64,000 nt of DNA, from the IMG/VR virus record IMGVR_UViG_3300032216_001476, positions 1 to 64,000 of that record; one strand, 5' to 3'. The DNA is from a virus. Its lineage: Duplodnaviria > Caudoviricetes. The notes beneath the pieces were generated by a model. The model saw nothing but the letters and a program-made list of their open reading frames with translations, did no database searches and was not told where the DNA came from. Positions 2,335 to 32,111 of this stretch are shown piece after piece. The first letter of the stretch is position 1, and each line of letters starts with the position of its first letter. The translations under genes and the position numbers were made by a program.

Positions 2335-5300
2335 TATGGTACTATGTTTACTGCACCATTATTATTCCATAAATCCCCCGATGCTAATCCTGTGGTGGAT
2401 GTGGGGAGGGAAGACATGCGAACTTTTCCTGTTGTTTTTAATGCTCCTGCACTTGCTGCTGTTCCACTAGTACCATCAACCTCTAAACGATAACCGATAT
2501 CTGTATAAGTGCCACCGTTTTTGAGTAAGACATTACCAGTATCACCAAAAAGTCTAAATCTCTCCGTTTGTGAAGTTGTTGATGTTATTCTAAAGTGTGC
2601 AGTTGATGTGTTGTTGTATAGAATTACGTTAAAACCATTAGCACCACTTGATGTAAATGCTACTAAATTTCTTTGGCTTGTTCCAACCCAACTTGATCCA
2701 AATATTTCTAATGCTCCATATTCTCCAGCAACATCATTTTTAATAACAATAGCAGATTCCCCAGTTGAACTTGTATTTGTTACTTTTAAATTAACGGCAC
2801 CACTTGAACCAACTGATTTGCTTATTTCTAAATCAGTCGTAGGACTTGCTGTCCCAATACCAATATATCCTGTATCACCTTTTACTATTAATCTTGTTGC
2901 GGAGGTCTGCAAAGTTGTTCCAGTGGTAATTTTTGTAGATGTGGTCAATATCACATCACCAGGAGTACCTGTACCCCTACCTCTACCACCTGCAAGAATT
3001 AAAGATCCTCCAGATATATTATTGAAAAAAGCCAAATTTGCACCTCCACCCGCTATTGTAGCAGCAGATGGATCATAAACAACCTCAGAACCATGTATTG
3101 TATAATCAGGTCTAGTTAATAAACCAGTACCTCCATTACCAAACCACACATCAAAAATCTTTGTGTCGTCACTACCAAACATTACGACATTACTTAAAGA
3201 ATCTGGGATTGTATCATTTCGGTAATCTCCTATAGCAGTTAATGGATTTTTCCATATAAAAGAATTACTAATTGTTTTATTAGTCCCAGAATTAGCACTA
3301 AGGCTACCTGTCCAAAATCCAGAACTTCCATTTTGCAAAATTGTTGATTTAGTAATAGTTGCACTAGTGGCTGATATTCCATATCCAAAACTTCTTCCTA
3401 TTACTAAAGAATCTGTATAGTATATCGTTCCAGTAGGATATCCAAAACCAGAACCAATAGTTGTGGAATTATTCATTACAGTATAACCTTGACCACCAGT
3501 TATATCTCCTATTGCAATGTTTATATTAGTCCAAGTTGCGGTATGGTAGTCAAGGTTACCAAAAATATAGTTAGTACCAGTACCCATTGTAAGCTCAGAA
3601 ACATAATCACTATTATATAATGATGTGAAGTATAAACCTTTTGCTATAGCACTCTTCCTGTTAAATGTCAGTTGCCTACCTGAGAAGTTAGCTCCCCATA
3701 CAACACCTGCATTTGTAATTCCACCAAGAGAACCGATATTATATACAGAAACACCTCCTGTATCTAAAGTTTGCGGAGCAAATGAACCTGTACTTGTTGG
3801 TGTCAAATTTGTATCCGTAAAAGATATACCACCGTAAAAAGAATAAAAAGCAGTGTATGTCCCTGATACGGTGCCTCTGTAAATTCTAAAATTCTTAAAA
3901 CTACCAATATAAATATTAGTAATAGCAACAGATCCTGTTGTTACTCCAGCTCCAATCACTGCTGAATACTCATTAGAACATCCTGCTTGATGACCATTGT
4001 TATCAAGTGCTACTATACGATAATAGTATGTTCCCGTAGTGAGTGTACCACCTGTTGCGTTACCAGTAACTGTAGCTGTAATTGCTAAAGTAAAAACATT
4101 ACCTACACCTAATGCTGTACTAACACCACTAGTACTTGAAACTGATACTAGACCTGTAATATCATTATAAGTCCCATTTGGTGTATTCAAAACAAGTTTA
4201 TCACTTGCACCATTTCCTAAACTGAGAACATGATAAGCCCCTGATCTAAAGTACACACCTGTTTCATTTTGTTCAATACTTGACCAAAAGTTACCAGTAA
4301 ATCCACCACCTCCGCCAACAGCTCCTGGATTTCCTGCAGGTCTTAAGATTATCTTAGTACCATAGTTGCCATTTTTTATAAACTGAATGACACCATCTAT
4401 CTCAGGATTAAGAGTATTGTTAGCAGCACCATAACCAAAACTACTTCCAAACACAACATTCATCCCTGATGTACGTAAATCAATTGTATTAACACCCGTA
4501 AAAGAACCTGCAGTGTAAGTTGTGTTTAAATCAAGTGCTATTAGTTTGTCATTATTATGACTTGCTACAAGTGTGTTAGCAAAGTTTATACCTTTAACAT
4601 CTACGCCACCAGCAGCCAAAACTGATGCAGATGCTGCAGTGTGTATTATAGAGGTTGGAACTATGTTTATACCAAAGCGGTTGCTACTATTAAATACAAA
4701 TTGAGTGTCATTTCCTGAATTAGCTCTTATGATAATTTCAGTACTGTTCGGTTTTTTAATTCCCCAGGTAAAATCTGTACGACCATTAAACAATAAGAAG
4801 GCATCATTTTGTAATGCTAAAACATTAAACTCACCAAGGTCAGTTGTAGTAGTTTTATTGGAAGTGCCAAATTGAATAGCTCCGTTAACATCTAGTTTAA
4901 TTGTATTAGTGGGTACAGATGAATACCCTATATAAGTACCACCACTTGTACTATTTAGTAGTACATTACCTCTTACAGTTTCAAGAGCAGTAAGTACCCC
5001 AGCATTTGTAGTAATATTAAAATCAATAACCAATGCTTTACTATTACCAGCTTGTGTACCTGTATTAACAGGCATTAAAAGCTTTAATAGCGTTGTAGTA
5101 AAGGCACCACTGTTTATTGTCGGGTTACTTGTAGTAAACAAAAACCTAGTTTGATCAGTACCATAACCTAGTGAACTATTAGTAGTAAATGTTAACTCAT
5201 TAGCATAAATAGTCTTGCTAGCTGAGGTTGTTCCAACAAATGCAAGATAATCATACAAGAACAAAGCTCCGTTAAACTGAGTTCTAGTATTTACAATGAA

Positions 5301-5587: not shown

Positions 5588-6208
5588 TTAAGATAGATAA
5601 GCGTATCCTGAAACGGGTTTACTAAAGCTAAGTACAAGAGTAGAAGTAGTAGAACTATTAATAGTTCCTATTATATTAGCACCTGTATTATCCACAGTAT
5701 ATACATTTGGAACAAAACCAAGAGAGTGATTAATTGTCCATATAGCTGAAGGTGTTGTTTGATTAAATGTATACTGTGAACCTGAAGATGATGTATTGTT
5801 AATAGTTACAGCAGGATTAAGATTAATCCTTGTAACACAACCAGCTGTATTCACATCAATTATATTTTGATTTTGACTCACTCCATAATTATAACTAAGT
5901 CCTAAATTAGAAGAAGAACTTGCACATGATTTTAAATAAGTGTATTGATTATTAACAAAAACTGAAGAATCAATTGATGTGTATGTAACTGGCAACCATC
6001 CCCAGTAGTTTATTGAAGATTGTGTAAGAGCTTCATTATCAGCATTAGATTGCCAATCAATAATCTCCTTACGCATAATGCTTAAATCAAGATTAGTCAT
6101 ATTGTTTTTATAATAATTAATTCCGTATTTCATTTTACGAAACTCATTATAAACATCATTAGCGAATATCTTGAAATATCTGGATTTATCTTTAAGGAGA
6201 TTTTTCAT
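5588..6208 (-). CDS. Tail hub / virion protein
   Basis: C-terminal WTINHSLG..P.V...D...G domain typical of fibre-attachment proteins. Confidence 0.6.
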   Translation of the reverse strand: MKNLLKDKSRYFKIFANDVYNEFRKMKYGINYYKNNMTNLDLSIMRKEIIDWQSNADNEALTQSSINYWGWLPVTYTSIDSSVFVNNQYTYLKSCASSSSNLGLSYNYGVSQNQNIIDVNTAGCVTRINLNPAVTINNTSSSGSQYTFNQTTPSAIWTINHSLGFVPNVYTVDNTGANIIGTINSSTTSTLVLSFSKPVSGYAYLS

Positions 6209-6213
6209 AGTTT

Positions 6214-6342
6214 TTAACTTGGGTTTTGAAGTTGTTTCTCGTAAATAGCAATACAGTTATTACATACTGAAGCACCATCTGAAGCTGTTTGTCTTTGACA
6301 TCCACAAGTGATAGTTGCTCCGCAATTAGGACATGTTTGCAT
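6214..6342 (-). CDS. 42-aa Cys-rich zinc-binding microprotein
   Basis: Manual translation MQTCPNCGATITCGCQRQTASDGASVCNNCIAIYEKQLQNPS; fills the gap between co-oriented genes. Confidence 0.75.
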   Translation of the reverse strand: MQTCPNCGATITCGCQRQTASDGASVCNNCIAIYEKQLQNPS

Positions 6343-6360
6343 TTTATTTGGTTTTATTGG

Positions 6361-6903
6361 TTAACAAGATTCTGTATACTTAATAAGTTTACTTTGAGCA
6401 TATATTAATAGCTCCAACCCTTGTTCTGGTTGATGTGCGTATTCCACTTTAGCTTTTGCTGCATCTATAAAACTTTTAATAAGTCTTAGTTCTTTTAGTT
6501 GTTCTTTTAAATCAGCATCAGGTTCACAAGCAGCTAATTCTAATGAAGAAAGAGCGTTATAGTATATATTAAGTGTTTGTGTTATACGAAGATATTGATA
6601 TTCTATATATACTTTATCATTAGGTGCAACTGAATATCTAACAGTAAATATACCATCAGGTATAGTATTACAATAAGAACCACAACCAGTATTTTGAATA
6701 CCTAATGTACACGCATTTAATACTAAATTAAATTGAGGTAACACTTCTATATTAACAGGAGTATTAAAACCAGGACTGGTTATTTGTAACAAACCACAAT
6801 TTGTACCAAGATCTTCAGCGTATAAACTTGTATCAAACACCCTAAGTACACTAATATTATTAGTATCTGGTAATTCTAAACTTAGTTGATGTTTATTTGC
6901 CAT
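6361..6903 (-). CDS. Putative tail hub / virion protein
   Basis: IPDGIFTVRYSV motif, position in crAss-like structural block. Confidence 0.55.
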   Translation of the reverse strand: MANKHQLSLELPDTNNISVLRVFDTSLYAEDLGTNCGLLQITSPGFNTPVNIEVLPQFNLVLNACTLGIQNTGCGSYCNTIPDGIFTVRYSVAPNDKVYIEYQYLRITQTLNIYYNALSSLELAACEPDADLKEQLKELRLIKSFIDAAKAKVEYAHQPEQGLELLIYAQSKLIKYTESC

Positions 6904-25393: not shown

Positions 25394-26047
25394 TTAGATG
25401 TTATACTCGTAATCTAGTATAGCTCCCACTAAGTCAGACCTGTGGTTTTCTTTGAGTTTGATATATTCTATACCCTTGAGCTTCTTAGACATTTCTATAA
25501 CGTATTTAAGACCATTAATACCATTATCCCTGATATCGGTTTGTTCTAGGTCTCCATTTATTATAATCTTACCTGTCTTACCAAGTCTAGTAAGAATAGC
25601 TAACATCTGTGCTTTGGTGAGGTTTTGTGCTTCCTCCACTATAAGTATATCATCTATAGTTTTACCCCTAATAAACTGCACAGGATATGCTTGTACTTTT
25701 TGATCTTGTATAAGTTGTGTTATCTTCACCTTATCATAGCACTTGGTGAGGTTTTCCATAAAAGCCTCTAAATAAGGATTAAACTTCTCTGTTAATCCCC
25801 CAGGAAGAAACCCCAAAGAATTACCCACCTCTATAGTGGCTCTAGTAACATATATAACATCTATCTGTTTCTTAAAGAGAAAATCTAACGCAGCTTGTGC
25901 AGACACTAAAGACTTCCCACACCCAGCTCTACCAGTAATAATAACTATTTGATTTTCCACTATAAGTTTCTTAGCTAACTTCTGCTCATCATTAAGTTGC
26001 AATTGATACTTAATATCAGTTTTACGTTCTCTATTTGGTTCCTTCAT
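25394..26047 (-). CDS. phoH: PhoH-like ATPase
   Basis: GRAGCGKS, LGFLPG, RGKT, EEAQN, LTRLG, GDLEQTD, HRS; likely start MKEPNR at 26047. Confidence 0.95.
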   Translation of the reverse strand: MKEPNRERKTDIKYQLQLNDEQKLAKKLIVENQIVIITGRAGCGKSLVSAQAALDFLFKKQIDVIYVTRATIEVGNSLGFLPGGLTEKFNPYLEAFMENLTKCYDKVKITQLIQDQKVQAYPVQFIRGKTIDDILIVEEAQNLTKAQMLAILTRLGKTGKIIINGDLEQTDIRDNGINGLKYVIEMSKKLKGIEYIKLKENHRSDLVGAILDYEYNI

Positions 26048-26067
26048 ACTACTAATATACAAATAAT

Positions 26068-26259: not shown

Positions 26260-26544
26260 ATGAAACTTGAATTGAAAGTATCGAAGTGTACCTTAAACAA
26301 CAAGAAAAATGGATACGTACTTTCCCTCCGTACAGAGGGAAAGAAAGTTGAGATTTTTCCTGGAATGTTTAAGGAAACACCAGGTCAATTGTTCTTAATG
26401 TCTTTCAAACATCCTATTCCCGAAGGAACGCCCACATCAATTGATTTGGATTTATTCCAAATCAAGGAAGACAAGAGTATTGTGAAGGATAGAATAACTG
26501 GCGAGGACATTACCTTGACAAACAAGTGGCTATGGCTCAAGTAG
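26260..26544 (+). CDS. First early gene, hypothetical (beta-rich)
   Basis: A-rich leader, followed by a terminator. Confidence 0.7.
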   Translation: MKLELKVSKCTLNNKKNGYVLSLRTEGKKVEIFPGMFKETPGQLFLMSFKHPIPEGTPTSIDLDLFQIKEDKSIVKDRITGEDITLTNKWLWLK

Positions 26545-26555
26545 AGCCACTTGTT

Positions 26556-26592
26556 AATACCACACTGCAGAAATGTAGTGTGGTATTTTTTT
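26556..26592 (+). terminator. Intrinsic terminator
   Basis: AATACCACACTGCA-GAAA-TGTAGTGTGGTATT plus T tract. Confidence 0.8.
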
Positions 26593-26599
26593 AGCTAAT

Positions 26600-26630
26600 T
26601 GACTATGTCAGTGCAAGTGACTATGTCAGT
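26600..26630. repeat. Tandem palindromic sites TGACTATGTCAGT x2
   Basis: Exact 13-mers at 26600 and 26618, each containing TGAC-N3-GTCA. Confidence 0.75.
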
Positions 26631-26769
26631 ATAAAAAGTTTTAAATTTTTAATTAAACAAACGTTATAACTAATTGATAATCAGTTAGTTATGTGTTAAT
26701 TTGTGTGTGCTAGGTATTCTCAACATCCTATCATCAATTCACAAAAAACACCTAATCTCACTAAAAATA

Positions 26770-26787
26770 GTGGATTAGATAGCTATA
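26770..26787. promoter_or_regulatory. 18-bp operator-like motif, copy 2
   Basis: GTGGATTAGATAGCTATA. Confidence 0.55.
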
Positions 26788-26973
26788 TAGTATTAATGCG
26801 TCATAACCATCTTCTCAAGGGATGGCAGATGTATATACTCTTGAGTAAGTCCTAAACTTAATTGTTACCAGTAAGCCTTACGTGGAATTATCGCCACAGA
26901 TGTAAGCATGGTGTTTAGGGTTCTAGTGTTTAATCACAAAAGAGTATATACAACTGAACGCAGAGAGATACTA
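26788..26973 (+). ncRNA. Twister ribozyme (type P1) with large P5 insertion
   Basis: P1 TAGTAT/ATACTA, UAA, P2 TGCG/CGCA, P4 CCATC/GATGG, loop (T)TCTCAAGG, 3' GA-GAG pseudoknot partner. Confidence 0.75.
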
Positions 26974-27107
26974 GTGTATACATAATACAACCAAGCCGTG
27001 AAAATCTATCAGTCCTGACCGTCTATGTACGAGGAACCAGAAACAAGTTTTCTGCTATTAGGAATTATGGAGCTGATATCTCCCTGGTTAATGTATTGTG
27101 TATACAC
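26974..27107 (+). ncRNA. Candidate multi-stem ncRNA
   Basis: 16-bp closing helix GTGTATACATAATACA/TGTATTGTGTATACAC with internal hairpins. Confidence 0.55.
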
Positions 27108-27142
27108 ACCTTTGTTTTTATTAATCACCAAATTCATATAGT

Positions 27143-27337
27143 ATGAATGTATTAGTTGAACATTATGTAAGATTGAGTAATGGTAATACCGAGTATAAAA
27201 ATGGTAAACCAGTAACAACCACCACTGTACTCAAGCTTCCGATTAAATTTGGATATGATCATTTTAGCAAACCTATGGTTGTGTTAAACCATAATATCCA
27301 AGTAGAAGATATAGTTAATATAACTCAGGTTGATTAA
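27143..27337 (+). CDS. Hypothetical early protein
   Basis: ORF between structured modules. Confidence 0.55.
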   Translation: MNVLVEHYVRLSNGNTEYKNGKPVTTTTVLKLPIKFGYDHFSKPMVVLNHNIQVEDIVNITQVD

Positions 27338-27340
27338 TTA

Positions 27341-27500
27341 TATCTGAATACTCACTCTATCTGATCAATAGAGACTTTGCTATCGTGGCATTGTAAAATA
27401 AGAGTTATGGGTAACAACCATAAATGTTTGATATGACTCGAAACAAGGGTGAAGACCGTCCTAATAGGGTAAAACTAATCCTGTAATCAAACTTCAGGTA
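27341..27500 (+). ncRNA. Candidate multi-stem ncRNA
   Basis: TATCTGAA/TTCAGGTA closing stem; hairpins CTCTAT/ATAGAG and TTATGG/CCATAA; stem GTTTGAT/ATCAAAC. Confidence 0.45.
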
Positions 27501-27540
27501 AATTTCTTTTCTGTTAATTATTCACCAAACTTTAAATAAT

Positions 27541-27699
27541 ATGTCTACATACAATGAAGTAGAAAGACTAATTGATAAACTCCTAAAAGCAAAAATGGAG
27601 TTTGAAGAGGACTATCAAAAAGGAAAACTTGATGAAAAAACATTTGCGTTACTATGTGACTTTATTGACGCAAGTGTTATAATGTTGTCAGAGTCTTAA
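27541..27699 (+). CDS. 52-aa hypothetical protein
   Basis: Manual translation MSTYNEVERLIDKLLKAKMEFEEDYQKGKLDEKTFALLCDFIDASVIMLSES. Confidence 0.6.
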   Translation: MSTYNEVERLIDKLLKAKMEFEEDYQKGKLDEKTFALLCDFIDASVIMLSES

Positions 27700-27871
27700 A
27701 TTTTTTTACCATATAATGGATGCATACGTTATATGGTAGTTTAACCACTATAATCAATTTATTGATTATCACTAAAGTCACTGTATTTATACAGAATATG
27801 TGTGGTGGTTTAAACAAGCAAGTAGACAAAATCGCACCTTGCTTCTATTTTATATGTAAAACTTAAGTCCC

Positions 27872-27973
27872 TGGAAAGGGTTTCTCCGATTGTAGGCTAT
27901 GGAGTGTAATATAAAACAACCTTCCAATGGTGGTAACGAATCCACCCATCCTGAGCATGATGTAAAACTGCTT
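27872..27973 (+). ncRNA. Candidate ncRNA ending in an H-type pseudoknot
   Basis: TGGAA..GGTT/AACCTTCCA, GGTGG/CCACC, then CATC-CTGAGCAT-GATG-TAAAAC-TGCT. Confidence 0.5.
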
Positions 27974-28009
27974 ATAGATTAGTATTTTTTGTTTTTGTTT
28001 GTTTAGTAA

Positions 28010-28110
28010 ATGAAACACAACATCCCTAAAAAGGAGAAATGTTGAGCTCTCTCTCATCGGGGATACTATACTGTATAGTTAGCATAAAGAAGTCCCTTGT
28101 TGTGTTTCAT
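28010..28110 (+). ncRNA. Candidate multi-stem ncRNA
   Basis: Perfect 13-bp closing helix ATGAAACACAACA/TGTTGTGTTTCAT. Confidence 0.5.
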
Positions 28111-28135
28111 ATTTTTTAATCATTAAACCTGAAAT

Positions 28136-28402
28136 ATGGAAAATGTAATCTACTTGTGTGTATATAACAAAGACTTAAGTATATACGCATGGTCTAAACA
28201 CGTAACTAATGCTATAGGCAAAATAATTACACGTGTTAAGACAGATGGATCTGATGTCACAATTGCTACGATAAGAACAAGTGACAAAAAGATTCTTAAC
28301 AAACAAACACTTTCTAAGTATTGGGCTGACAATCTTAGAAAACAAAAAGAATTTCAGCTTAACGGTGAAGCTGCCGAAATGTTTAACTCAATTCAATCTT
28401 AA
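28136..28402 (+). CDS. Hypothetical early protein
   Basis: ORF in early cluster. Confidence 0.6.
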   Translation: MENVIYLCVYNKDLSIYAWSKHVTNAIGKIITRVKTDGSDVTIATIRTSDKKILNKQTLSKYWADNLRKQKEFQLNGEAAEMFNSIQS

Positions 28403-28824: not shown

Positions 28825-29049
28825 ATGAAACCATTAGTAATTTATGGCACAGCAATGTTCCTATTAACAACAGCAACTATTGTAATGACAACCGTAGTGA
28901 TAAAACAAGAATTCAATTTCGACCAAATAGTTGTTCTTGGATTATTGGGACTACTGGGTTACGGTGCAACAGCTATTTCTTTTTATATCAATAGTCTTGA
29001 TAACAAAAACAAAACTAAAAAACTTTTTAACGAACTAAAAACAAAATGA
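28825..29049 (+). CDS. Small two-TM membrane protein
   Basis: Two hydrophobic segments. Confidence 0.6.
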   Translation: MKPLVIYGTAMFLLTTATIVMTTVVIKQEFNFDQIVVLGLLGLLGYGATAISFYINSLDNKNKTKKLFNELKTK

Positions 29050-29393
29050 GTATGAGCAACCAAATGATCAACATGACTCCACATGCAGTAACAATTGTGG
29101 ACAACGAAGGTAACGTTGTAAAAACAATACCACCGTCTGGTCAACTTATTAGGTTGAAAGCTGCAACTATGCGTATGGAAAATAGATATAATATCTATTT
29201 TCCAGAAATTCCATTTTCACGTACAGTTTTTAGCTCACCTGAAGGTTTACAAGAGTATGACGTAAAGAAGTTTTATATTGTTTCACAACTTGTAAAGTCT
29301 GCACTACCAGATAGAGATGATTTACTTGTGCCTGCAGAGGTAGTAAGAGACAGTGAAGGTAATATAATAGGATGTAAGTCTCTAGGTATGTAA
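29046..29393 (+). CDS. NxTPH-motif protein, putative Crn4-like ring nuclease
   Basis: INMTPHAVTI...PPSG..IR...YIVS.LV...R.DLLVP...VRD..G.IIGCKSL. Confidence 0.5.
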   Translation: MSMSNQMINMTPHAVTIVDNEGNVVKTIPPSGQLIRLKAATMRMENRYNIYFPEIPFSRTVFSSPEGLQEYDVKKFYIVSQLVKSALPDRDDLLVPAEVVRDSEGNIIGCKSLGM

Positions 29394-29456
29394 TTTAAAT
29401 AGGTATGTATGTAATGTACATACCTATTTCTTTATTTAATCACCAAAAAAAAGATT

Positions 29457-30329: not shown

Positions 30330-30341
30330 TATTTGGTGATT

Positions 30342-30454
30342 AAGGACCCTGGAGATAATATCAAAGGGGTCCTTTTTATTTCAAAAAAAAGTGGCAAGCA
30401 ATCGTTAGAGGTAAAACAAAACCCTGGTGTTTCTACACTGGGGTTATTTTTTTT
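30342..30454 (+). terminator. Two tandem intrinsic terminators
   Basis: AAGGACCC/GGGTCCTT+T tract and ACCCTGGTGT-TTCT-ACACTGGGGT+T tract. Confidence 0.7.
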
Positions 30455-30474
30455 AATCAATTAATTCTTATAAT

Positions 30475-32036: not shown

Positions 32037-32111
32037 GGACCCTTAGCTCAGTTGGTTAGTAGCACCTGACTCATAATCAGGGGGTCGTAGGTTCAAATCC
32101 TACAGGGTCCA
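32037..32111 (+). tRNA. tRNA CAU anticodon, most like Ile2 (lysidine-type)
   Basis: GGACCCT/AGGGTCC, CCTGA-CTCATAA-TCAGG, GTAGG-TTCAAAT-CCTAC; paired G1-C72 excludes initiator Met. Confidence 0.88.

Follow-up and report, generated by a model that had tools for sequence, protein, structure and literature searches.

Self-cleaving ribozymes are known to punctuate operons of phages and prophages, and the 5′ end mapped for the early transcript of HF1/HF2 coincides with an HHphage hammerhead (Perreault et al. 2011, PMC3088659). The purpose of such ribozymes has been an open question since that report. In a second system, the crAss-like phage phi14:2, abundant early long non-coding RNAs are produced from long intergenic regions (Drobysheva et al., 10.1101/2020.03.07.982082). 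Here we describe a locus that resembles both. It is found in the window, a stretch of 64,000 nucleotides that comprises the first 64 kb of a 95,136-bp IMG/VR virus record (IMGVR_UViG_3300032216_001476, estimated to be 77% complete). The locus (26.6–28.1 kb) begins with a predicted twister-type ribozyme, which carries a conserved 131-nt RNA (cargo A) in its P5 arm, and it contains a second conserved RNA (module 6) and very small genes. We consider it likely, with reasonable confidence, that the locus is a fast-changing, ribozyme-headed island of RNAs and micro-genes, and that it opens the rightward (probably the early) genes of a crAss-like phage. Related and comparison loci are identified by L numbers.

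The likeness to the ribozyme-punctuated operons is that a self-cleaving RNA, here a predicted one, stands at the start of a unit that is presumed to be early, that ribozymes occur in rows in relatives, and that ribozyme classes are interchangeable at one place. However, the ribozymes in the relatives flank small structured RNAs as well as genes, and the window has one ribozyme with a passenger RNA. What the locus shares with phi14:2, also a crAss-like phage, is extended non-coding sequence close to where the early genes begin. In contrast to this similarity, no convincing homology to phi14:2 was found: a covariance model (CM) of cargo A, CM R1, finds nothing there, and the first 9 kb of phi14:2 have no twister frame or Rfam ribozyme. 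The sole match extends over ~45 nt with ~80% identity, between positions 1412–1462 of phi14:2 (L040) and 26834–26880 of the window (GUAU.AUACU..GAG.AAGUCCUAAACUU.AU). This short match was confirmed by neither CM R1 nor the twister descriptor (see below), and we do not take it as evidence of homology. On the phi14:2 side it is part of the first long intergenic region of that phage, and a 10-bp inverted repeat (1285/1567) encloses this region. A first-pass annotation of the window had proposed positions 26788–28110 as a candidate for an undescribed system. This proposal does not hold in that form, as phage ribozymes located at gene junctions or at the 5′ end of an early transcript have been known since 2011 (PMC3088659) and early long non-coding RNAs have been reported for phi14:2 (10.1101/2020.03.07.982082).

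The first module of the island (module 1, 26788–26973, + strand) is probably a variant of the twister ribozyme, with self-cleavage predicted. The 5′ half of the frame (26788–26825) contains P1 (UAGUAU), the predicted cleavage site U26794|A26795, an A, P2 (UGCG), the T2 partner UC, P4 (CCAUC/GAUGG), and the L4 loop (UUCUCAAGG). The 3′ half (26957–26973) contains AA, P2′ (CGCA), GA, T1′ (GAG), and P1′ (AUACUA). Twisters of type P1 with an optional P5 (Roth et al. 2014, as reviewed in PMC5408937) have the same order of elements, namely P1, U|A, A, P2, a 2-nt T2 partner, P4, L4 with (U)UCYCAAGG, P5, P2′, GA, a 3-nt T1 partner and P1′, and both pseudoknots covary. There is a difference in the last base of L4, which is a C paired to G in known twisters and a G paired to C or U here.

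The elements P1, P2, P4, T1, and T2 are found in canonical order in five versions, from the window, L045, L088, L089, and the sister strain L093, and compensatory changes are observed in every one of them, including both pseudoknots. P1 has a different sequence in each version and yet is still paired, and the internal loop with the U-A cleavage step is present. Pseudoknot T1 is formed by L4 and the three nucleotides after GA, and its observed forms (CUC/GAG, CAC/GUG, CCA/UGG, and CCC/GGG) are all fully complementary. Pseudoknot T2 is formed by L4 and the two nucleotides after P2, with GG paired to UC or CC. The frame was also matched by eye to the descriptor published with the largest experimental survey of twisters (10.1101/2024.07.11.603121), which has P4/L4 CCGGUCCCAAGCCCGG, L4 UCCCAAGC, ‘NC’ for PK1, ‘GRG’ for the 3′ side of PK2, ‘NA’ at the cleavage site, and a G after P2′. 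The corresponding values in the window are UUCUCAAGG, UC, GAG, UA, and GA; the last base of L4 deviates, and its partner compensates for the change. The strict descriptor, including P1, has one hit in the real 95-kb genome, and chance hits were obtained in 2 of 150 shuffled genomes. This is the single twister frame in the whole 95-kb genome, which has no other Rfam ribozyme, and the window does not show several ribozymes per unit. No hammerhead core motifs were seen by eye in the region.

In the published survey, P5 is uncommon and has no consensus (10.1101/2024.07.11.603121). In contrast, the base of P5 is conserved here (CAGUUGUA/UACAACUG), and the P5 cargos that it holds span 27–182 nt. A 17-base pattern covering L4, P4′, and the base of P5 is present in more than 120 IMG/VR viral contigs, compared to ~5 expected by chance, and in 107 of the 123 occurrences P5 closes and is followed by A-GUGCA-GA-GGG. 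The pattern appears to define a large subfamily of phage twisters, with catalysis predicted, which current Rfam models miss. The 89 P5 interiors that were collected fall into 79 sequence clusters, and nearly all are unique. Because L093 keeps the twister with a different interior, and because there are 79 sequence types among 89, the frame appears to be constant while the interior is swapped between phages. Tandem twisters, with two or three in a row, are found in 14 of the 104 locus-strands of relatives. In L099, two compact twisters (3274–3329 and 5064–5118, with P5 of 16–17 nt) flank a homologue of a 115-aa gene of the window (29046–29393), and in L131 (1398–1457) a near-threshold Pistol ribozyme (33.9 vs 34.5 bits) is located 1.3 kb upstream of a twister.

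Cargo A (26826–26956, + strand) consists of a long closing helix around a four-helix arm and a small hairpin. Its first clear homologue, in L045, turned up in a 16-mer scan that was based on the short phi14:2 match and had a chance-level number of hits, and later scans led to L067, L088, L089, and L090/L091. In these six contigs CM R1, the model of 26826–26956, scores 135–149 bits. The model has a strong strand preference (149 bits on the + strand and 21 on the opposite strand). Compensatory changes are present at six base pairs; none of 500 column shuffles reached this number, and slid registers give 0–1 such pairs. Structural selection acts on cargo A at least. In L067 the RNA is accompanied by no more than a degenerate twister frame and ends 45 nt upstream of an ATG, and in L090/L091 it has no twister frame and sits between two terminator-like hairpins. 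The genes downstream of cargo A are different in every contig. A search of 100 further twister loci with CM R1 found no additional copy of cargo A.

The closest relative of the window is L001, with a PhoH gene that is 95% identical. The alignment of the two runs from PhoH to exactly position 26791, with none beyond it. At the exact end of this homology L001 has a Pistol ribozyme (RF02679; PMC4604425), a class that is absent from the window, with a score of 37.1 bits compared to the Rfam gathering score of 34.5. Downstream of the Pistol ribozyme are a P5-type stem (AGUUGUAAU...AUUACAACU) around an unrelated interior and then a remnant of a twister 3′ half. L002 and L018 have twisters at the place equivalent to that in the window. 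The position of the ribozyme therefore seems to be conserved, and its class is not. This exchange of twister and Pistol at one site matches a published comment that ribozymes of unrelated classes are found in the same contexts, such that cleavage matters and not the motif (PMC6765202). Among 39 PhoH-linked relatives, L001 is the sole one that aligns, and this only up to 26791.

Module 6 (27857–27976, + strand) has a core of three hairpins (27861–27957) with the conserved loop GNUUGUAGGNNAU. A 3′ hairpin (27948–27976) and a U-rich tract, which extends to 28006, follow. Homologues of module 6 were found in twister-bearing loci despite its having the worst folding score of all the modules. A second covariance model (CM R2), built from nine sequences, and one more pattern scan together recover 17 distinct members at 70–109 bits and a weak syntenic hit in L106. 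The three hairpins covary across the sequences. In the central hairpin, four of the five pairs covary, with 18 double changes compared to 4.2±1.6 in shuffles (0 of 500 as high), and in L093 a G-C pair of the hairpin 27929–27946 has become G·U. We therefore assign module 6, on comparative grounds, to a conserved and uncatalogued family of phage RNAs.

The members of this family are usually located beside twisters, on the same strand. The twister begins 0–44 nt after the RNA in L231, L194, L184, and L115, and in L184 the RNA is flanked by twisters on both sides. Because relatives of module 6 abut twisters, ribozyme-delimited trains of small RNAs exist in this phage group, and this adjacency is the strongest support for the small-RNA train proposed in the first-pass annotation. 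In the window itself, it is the U-rich tract, not a ribozyme, that comes after module 6. The 3′ hairpin, CCUNAGCAUGAUNUAAAACUGCUUAU, recurs with ~93% identity right after stop codons in L176, L205, L180, and L174/L171, contigs without the rest of module 6, and it may be a sequence-specific terminator or processing signal. Another hairpin, with a conserved 19-nt loop (GAUAUAAUGCGAAGUGAAA), is present on the 3′ flank of module 6 homologues in L150, L209/L232/L242, L194, and L106. Its stems covary (GGUAG/CUACC, GAGUGG/CCACUC, GUAGAG/CUCUAC, and UGGCAG/CUGCCA), and it is absent from the window and from Rfam.

A conserved leader and control region (26590–26787, + strand) precedes the twister frame. 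It contains two palindromic boxes TGACTATGTCAGT, 4 nt apart (26597–26631), and a 27-nt palindrome, ATAACTAATTGATAATCAGTTAGTTAT (26666–26692). The region aligns with L001 (77% identity over 26641–26791), L002, L067, and L088, and it is near-identical in L092–L094, where a 26-nt insert separates the boxes. It looks like an operator and promoter of the early unit, the promoter role being a prediction. A scan for sigma-70 promoters gave hits no more numerous than in shuffled sequence.

A short motif, TTAATCACCAAA, is found 10 nt before the ATG of a 64-aa gene (ORF64), at 27121–27132 (+ strand). Exact copies are located at 27121, 29436, and, on the – strand, 30332 (30332–30343), with ~0.03 expected. 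Near copies are located at 27518 (27518–27529), 28116 (28116–28127), and 30452 (30452–30463). The five copies on the + strand (27121, 27518, 28116, 29436, and 30452) each follow a stem-loop and a T-run, with the ATG of a small early gene 8–12 nt further on. L018/L116, L067, L088, and L093 also have the motif, which could be a phage promoter, a signal in the 5′ untranslated region or a recombination site. AAUCAC-like strings are also found inside cargos A, B, and C.

Near-identical strains reveal how the island changes. L095 and L096 are identical to the window across it. L092 has a deletion of 26834–27098 between GTATA(T)AC repeats, in which cargo A, module 2, and the 3′ half of the twister are lost. 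In L093 and L094, the missing parts are module 2, ORF64, and module 3, with the different P5 interior noted for L093; both also have a further unit of 88 nt at 27856/27857, bounded by TATATG repeats. In both strains the downstream 52-aa gene (ORF52) carries the leader of ORF64, and as a result a recombination junction can be placed in the TTAATCACCAAA motif. This is the one junction documented in the motif; the other strain indels end in microhomologies that are different from it. Cassettes are thus gained, lost, and swapped between strains, with endpoints at short repeated boundary sequences.

This turnover resembles the shuffling mediated by PeSL promoter–terminator cassettes in T4-type phages (Arbiol et al. 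2010, PMC2839356; PMC4122927). In both, a stem-loop, a T-run, and a motif are repeated before small early ORFs (open reading frames), and here one strain difference ends within the motif. However, the motif is unrelated in sequence, a single junction is documented, and some of the stem-loops enclose 75–100 nt, and we would describe the relationship as a resemblance and not as membership.

The first-pass annotation had described 26788–28110 as mostly non-coding, with two interleaved small ORFs and seven structured RNA modules that share no obvious sequence, most of them closed by a long helix. The outline of this description was borne out. Only two + strand ORFs are preceded by the leader motif (27143–27337 and 27541–27699), no sequence is common to the modules, and long closing helices are present: one of 13 bp at 26830/26952, one of 16 bp including one G·U at 26974/27107, and another of 13 bp at 28010/28110. 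When the + strand of the 95-kb genome is scanned for stems that reach 13 bp or more, have no more than one G·U, and close 40–260 nt, 13 are found, and three of them are within the 1.3 kb of the island, compared to ~0.18 expected. Weaker stems (at least 12 bp and at most two G·U, closing 40–260 nt) mean little, since there are 0.7 of them per kb throughout the genome, on either strand.

The claim of seven structured RNAs stood for modules 1 and 6. For the other five there are no homologues and no covariation, and a folding signal is absent apart from the closing stems. Searches of 229 loci with modules 2–7 by blastn and nhmmer gave homologues for module 6 alone. Covariation is found in module 1 (twister frame and cargo A) and in module 6, and for modules 2, 3, 4, 5, and 7 there are no homologues outside near-identical strains to compare. 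A scan of 26500–28300 against Rfam gave nothing at the gathering score and only chance-level hits at E≤10. When compared to dinucleotide shuffles, the folding energies of 27341–27500 (z-score –2.1), 27740–27814 (–1.95), and 27872–27973 (0.0) are no better than the shuffles. Stem-defined units anywhere in the genome have z-scores of –1 to –4, and the interiors of modules 2 and 7 have z-scores near 0 (0.06 for module 7). The interior of cargo A has a z-score of only –0.4 despite its covariation. Because an RNA proven by covariation also scores near background, folding z-scores were dropped as a criterion in this AT-rich genome.

Module 2 (26974–27107, + strand) has its 16-bp stem around 102 nt and is followed by CCUUUGUUUUUAUU. 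At the equivalent position, after its twister-cargo unit, L045 has a stem of 10 bp with a 28-nt loop, and then U7. Module 7 (28010–28110, + strand), which is identical in L093 and otherwise strain-specific, like modules 2 and 4, has a perfect 13-bp stem around 75 nt and is followed by a U-run and the leader motif of an 88-aa gene (ATG at 28136). A T-run and TTAATCACCAAA come directly after each of modules 2, 3, and 7, and ordinary terminator-like hairpins hold the same position downstream (29397–29429 and ~30420). Based on this shared position and on the 10-bp stem of L045, modules 2 and 7 are probably terminators or 3′-protective stem-loops of unusually large size, with module 2 predicted to close the 3′ side of the twister-cargo RNA. 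Module 4 (27707–27738, + strand) is a 12-bp hairpin 7 nt after the stop codon of ORF52, with a z-score of –5.0 and no U-run, and its probable role is to terminate transcripts or to stabilise their 3′ ends. Being identical in L093, it offers no comparative information. Module 3 (27341–27500, + strand) separates ORF64 from the next leader motif; it has a z-score of –2.1 on the + strand and 0.0 on the – strand, an L092 indel in its 5′ closing strand, and no homologue, and it is absent in L093. Module 5, together with a hairpin at 27816–27844 and a U-rich tail, covers 27740–27856 (+ strand) and is identical in L093. Modules 3 and 5 are unsupported as structured RNAs, and there is a low probability that they are young small RNAs in the closed-stem format of P5 cargos. 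A reading of modules 2 and 7 as miniature inverted-repeat transposable elements was rejected, as there are no second copies and no target duplications.

Based on these observations, transcription from the control region would first produce the twister-type ribozyme. Cleavage between U26794 and A26795 would detach the promoter-proximal leader, and the downstream RNA would begin with a 5′-hydroxyl. This RNA would consist of the ribozyme body, with cargo A displayed on its P5 arm, and its 3′ side would be closed by the stem-loop and U-tract of module 2. The two tiny protein genes would come next, each introduced by a stem-loop, a T-run, and TTAATCACCAAA, followed by the module 6 RNA and then by the large stem-loop of module 7 ahead of the 88-aa gene. 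Recombination at short repeated boundary sequences would account for the gain, loss, and exchange of cassettes. Our guess is that cargo A and module 6 are stable effector RNAs that bind a host or phage factor. A broader proposal, which is speculative and to which we assign a rather low probability, is that the P5 arm of the phage twister subfamily is a plug-in scaffold, with a constant ribozyme and P5 base and an exchangeable interior of 30–180 nt. Together with RNAs of the module 6 type it would give ribozyme-delimited arrays of stable effector RNAs with 5′-hydroxyl and cyclic-phosphate ends, made first after infection, which would bind or mimic host factors such as components of defence or RNA decay.

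Several observations weigh against this interpretation of the island. The Rfam twister models RF03160, RF02684, and RF03154 have no match at E≤10 in the window or the genome, and none in ten related records with compact members (P5 of 16–27 nt). Since these models give no score, the twister assignment rests on manual matching and covariation. The uniqueness of the P5 interiors could mean that they are spacers and not payload. L092 exists without cargo A, the 3′ half of the ribozyme, and module 2, and therefore either these are dispensable or L092 is defective. Modules 2, 3, 4, 5, and 7 have no homologue beyond near-identical strains, with interiors that fold like shuffles, and for the stems of modules 2 and 7 the two strands give similar scores.

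The small-RNA array of the first-pass annotation, taken in its fullest form, differs from our interpretation in that all seven modules would be discrete RNAs that are released from a single early precursor by the ribozyme and RNase III and act as decoys against host defences or toxins. The array agrees with the RNA-rich cassettes at the start of the + strand block, the head with a twister layout, the modularity among strains, the clustering of long stems in the island, and the trains of twisters and small RNAs in relatives. Moreover, modules 1 and 6 are real RNAs by covariation, and modules 2 and 7 match the P5 cargos in size (27–182 nt) and format, with a long closing stem around 75–130 nt. 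However, the array fails for five of the seven modules, which lack homologues and covariation and have interior z-scores near 0, and the window has a single ribozyme. Modules 2, 3, and 7 are exactly at the positions that ordinary terminator hairpins occupy before other leader motifs, and no module has a link to a defence system. We judge it unlikely that all seven are processed RNAs. The twister, P5 RNA, and terminator-like stem could also form a cis-regulatory leader, a sensor and expression platform that tunes read-through or stability of the downstream small genes and is not trans-acting. The order of conserved folded RNA, stem-loop with U-tract, leader, and small ORF is shared by L045 and the window, the end of cargo A in L067 is close to an ATG (45 nt), and reviews consider processing of polycistronic transcripts as a means to tune stability (PMC6765202). 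On the other hand, the genes downstream are not the same in any two contigs, cargo A between its two terminator-like hairpins in L091 resembles a stand-alone gene, and no alternative-pairing element was found, and we give a cis-acting leader little chance.

Features that act as DNA, with no role for RNA, are a very unlikely explanation. The inverted repeats would then be a replication origin, protein-binding sites, or N4-like hairpin promoters for a virion RNA polymerase, in agreement with the cumulative GC-skew minimum and the divergent gene switch, which both adjoin the island, with the palindromic boxes just upstream, and with the stems of modules 2 and 7, which fold equally well on both strands. 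However, G·U pairs are part of the covariation observed in cargo A, in the twister frame, and in module 6, and the models favor the + strand (149 vs 21 bits). The G·U in the 16-bp stem would be A·C on the opposite strand, and the change in the L093 hairpin (27929–27946) is from G-C to G·U. Stem arms that are 75–100 nt apart are also poor cruciforms. Decaying or unannotated coding sequence is extremely improbable as the origin of the modules, even though phage early regions are rich in tiny genes and several ORFs of 25–64 aa overlap the modules, for example 27720–27866 (+), 27899–27982 (+), and 27863–28057 (–). These overlapping ORFs have no leader motif. All the L093 substitutions in the ORF at 27899–27982, which overlaps module 6, change the protein, and one removes the stop codon; the conservation of module 6 follows the hairpins and not the reading frame.

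Gene-junction ribozymes in phages (2011), P5 stems in twisters, Pistol ribozymes in phages, and the early non-coding RNAs of phi14:2 are known already. Four aspects of the locus appear to be new: a conserved P5 base with swappable interiors, among them a conserved RNA that is found free as well; the replacement of twister by Pistol at an orthologous site; the module 6 RNA family with its adjacency to twisters; and the size of a twister subfamily that is invisible to Rfam. The locus is a compact natural experiment on the purpose of phage ribozymes, as near-identical phages differ at one site, below one conserved control region, in having a twister, a Pistol, or a deletion of the ribozyme. A passenger RNA that also exists alone and a second RNA bounded by twisters in relatives, together with the ribozyme swap, suggest that some phage ribozymes trim and release small structured RNAs and do not only cut mRNAs. 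This gives a testable idea for the unexplained early non-coding RNAs of crAss-like phages.

The large terminase of the virus is 25–26% identical to crAss-like phage terminases, with related terminases in Flavobacterium and Cellulophaga phages, and on this basis the virus is classified as a crAss-like phage. A DNA similarity search of GenBank phages with the window gave no match. The structural genes are transcribed leftward up to the PhoH gene (25394–26062), and small genes are arranged rightward from 26260, with the divergence point at ~26.1 kb. The rightward block probably consists of early genes, a timing judged from genome position alone because the island sits just after the divergent switch. 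Code 11 leaves the genes neighbouring the island open. A 94-aa gene (26260–26544), located between PhoH and the island, is conserved in L001 (49%) and L092–L096. Its N-terminal two thirds are far more diverged than its C-terminal end, and it has no family hit.

ORF64 (27143–27337, + strand) has no family hits either. It is 94% identical to its L092 homologue, and the 6 synonymous compared to 4 non-synonymous changes support a real gene under purifying selection. ORF52 (27541–27699, + strand), which also has a leader motif upstream, is intact in L093–L096. A PHROG scan of the small ORFs gave no families.

The start of the rightward gene block is an RNA-gene hotspot across the clade. In L009, L011, L015–L017, L019, L023, L024, and L027–L029, one to three tRNA genes are found in place of the RNA island, 0.7–2.7 kb from PhoH and oriented as the + strand of the window. 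The tRNA genes of the window itself are further downstream, at 32037 and 33802. L005 has a group I intron (2266–2498, + strand; 67.4 bits with the Rfam model), located ~3.5 kb upstream of its PhoH gene (6001–6657) on the same locus strand.

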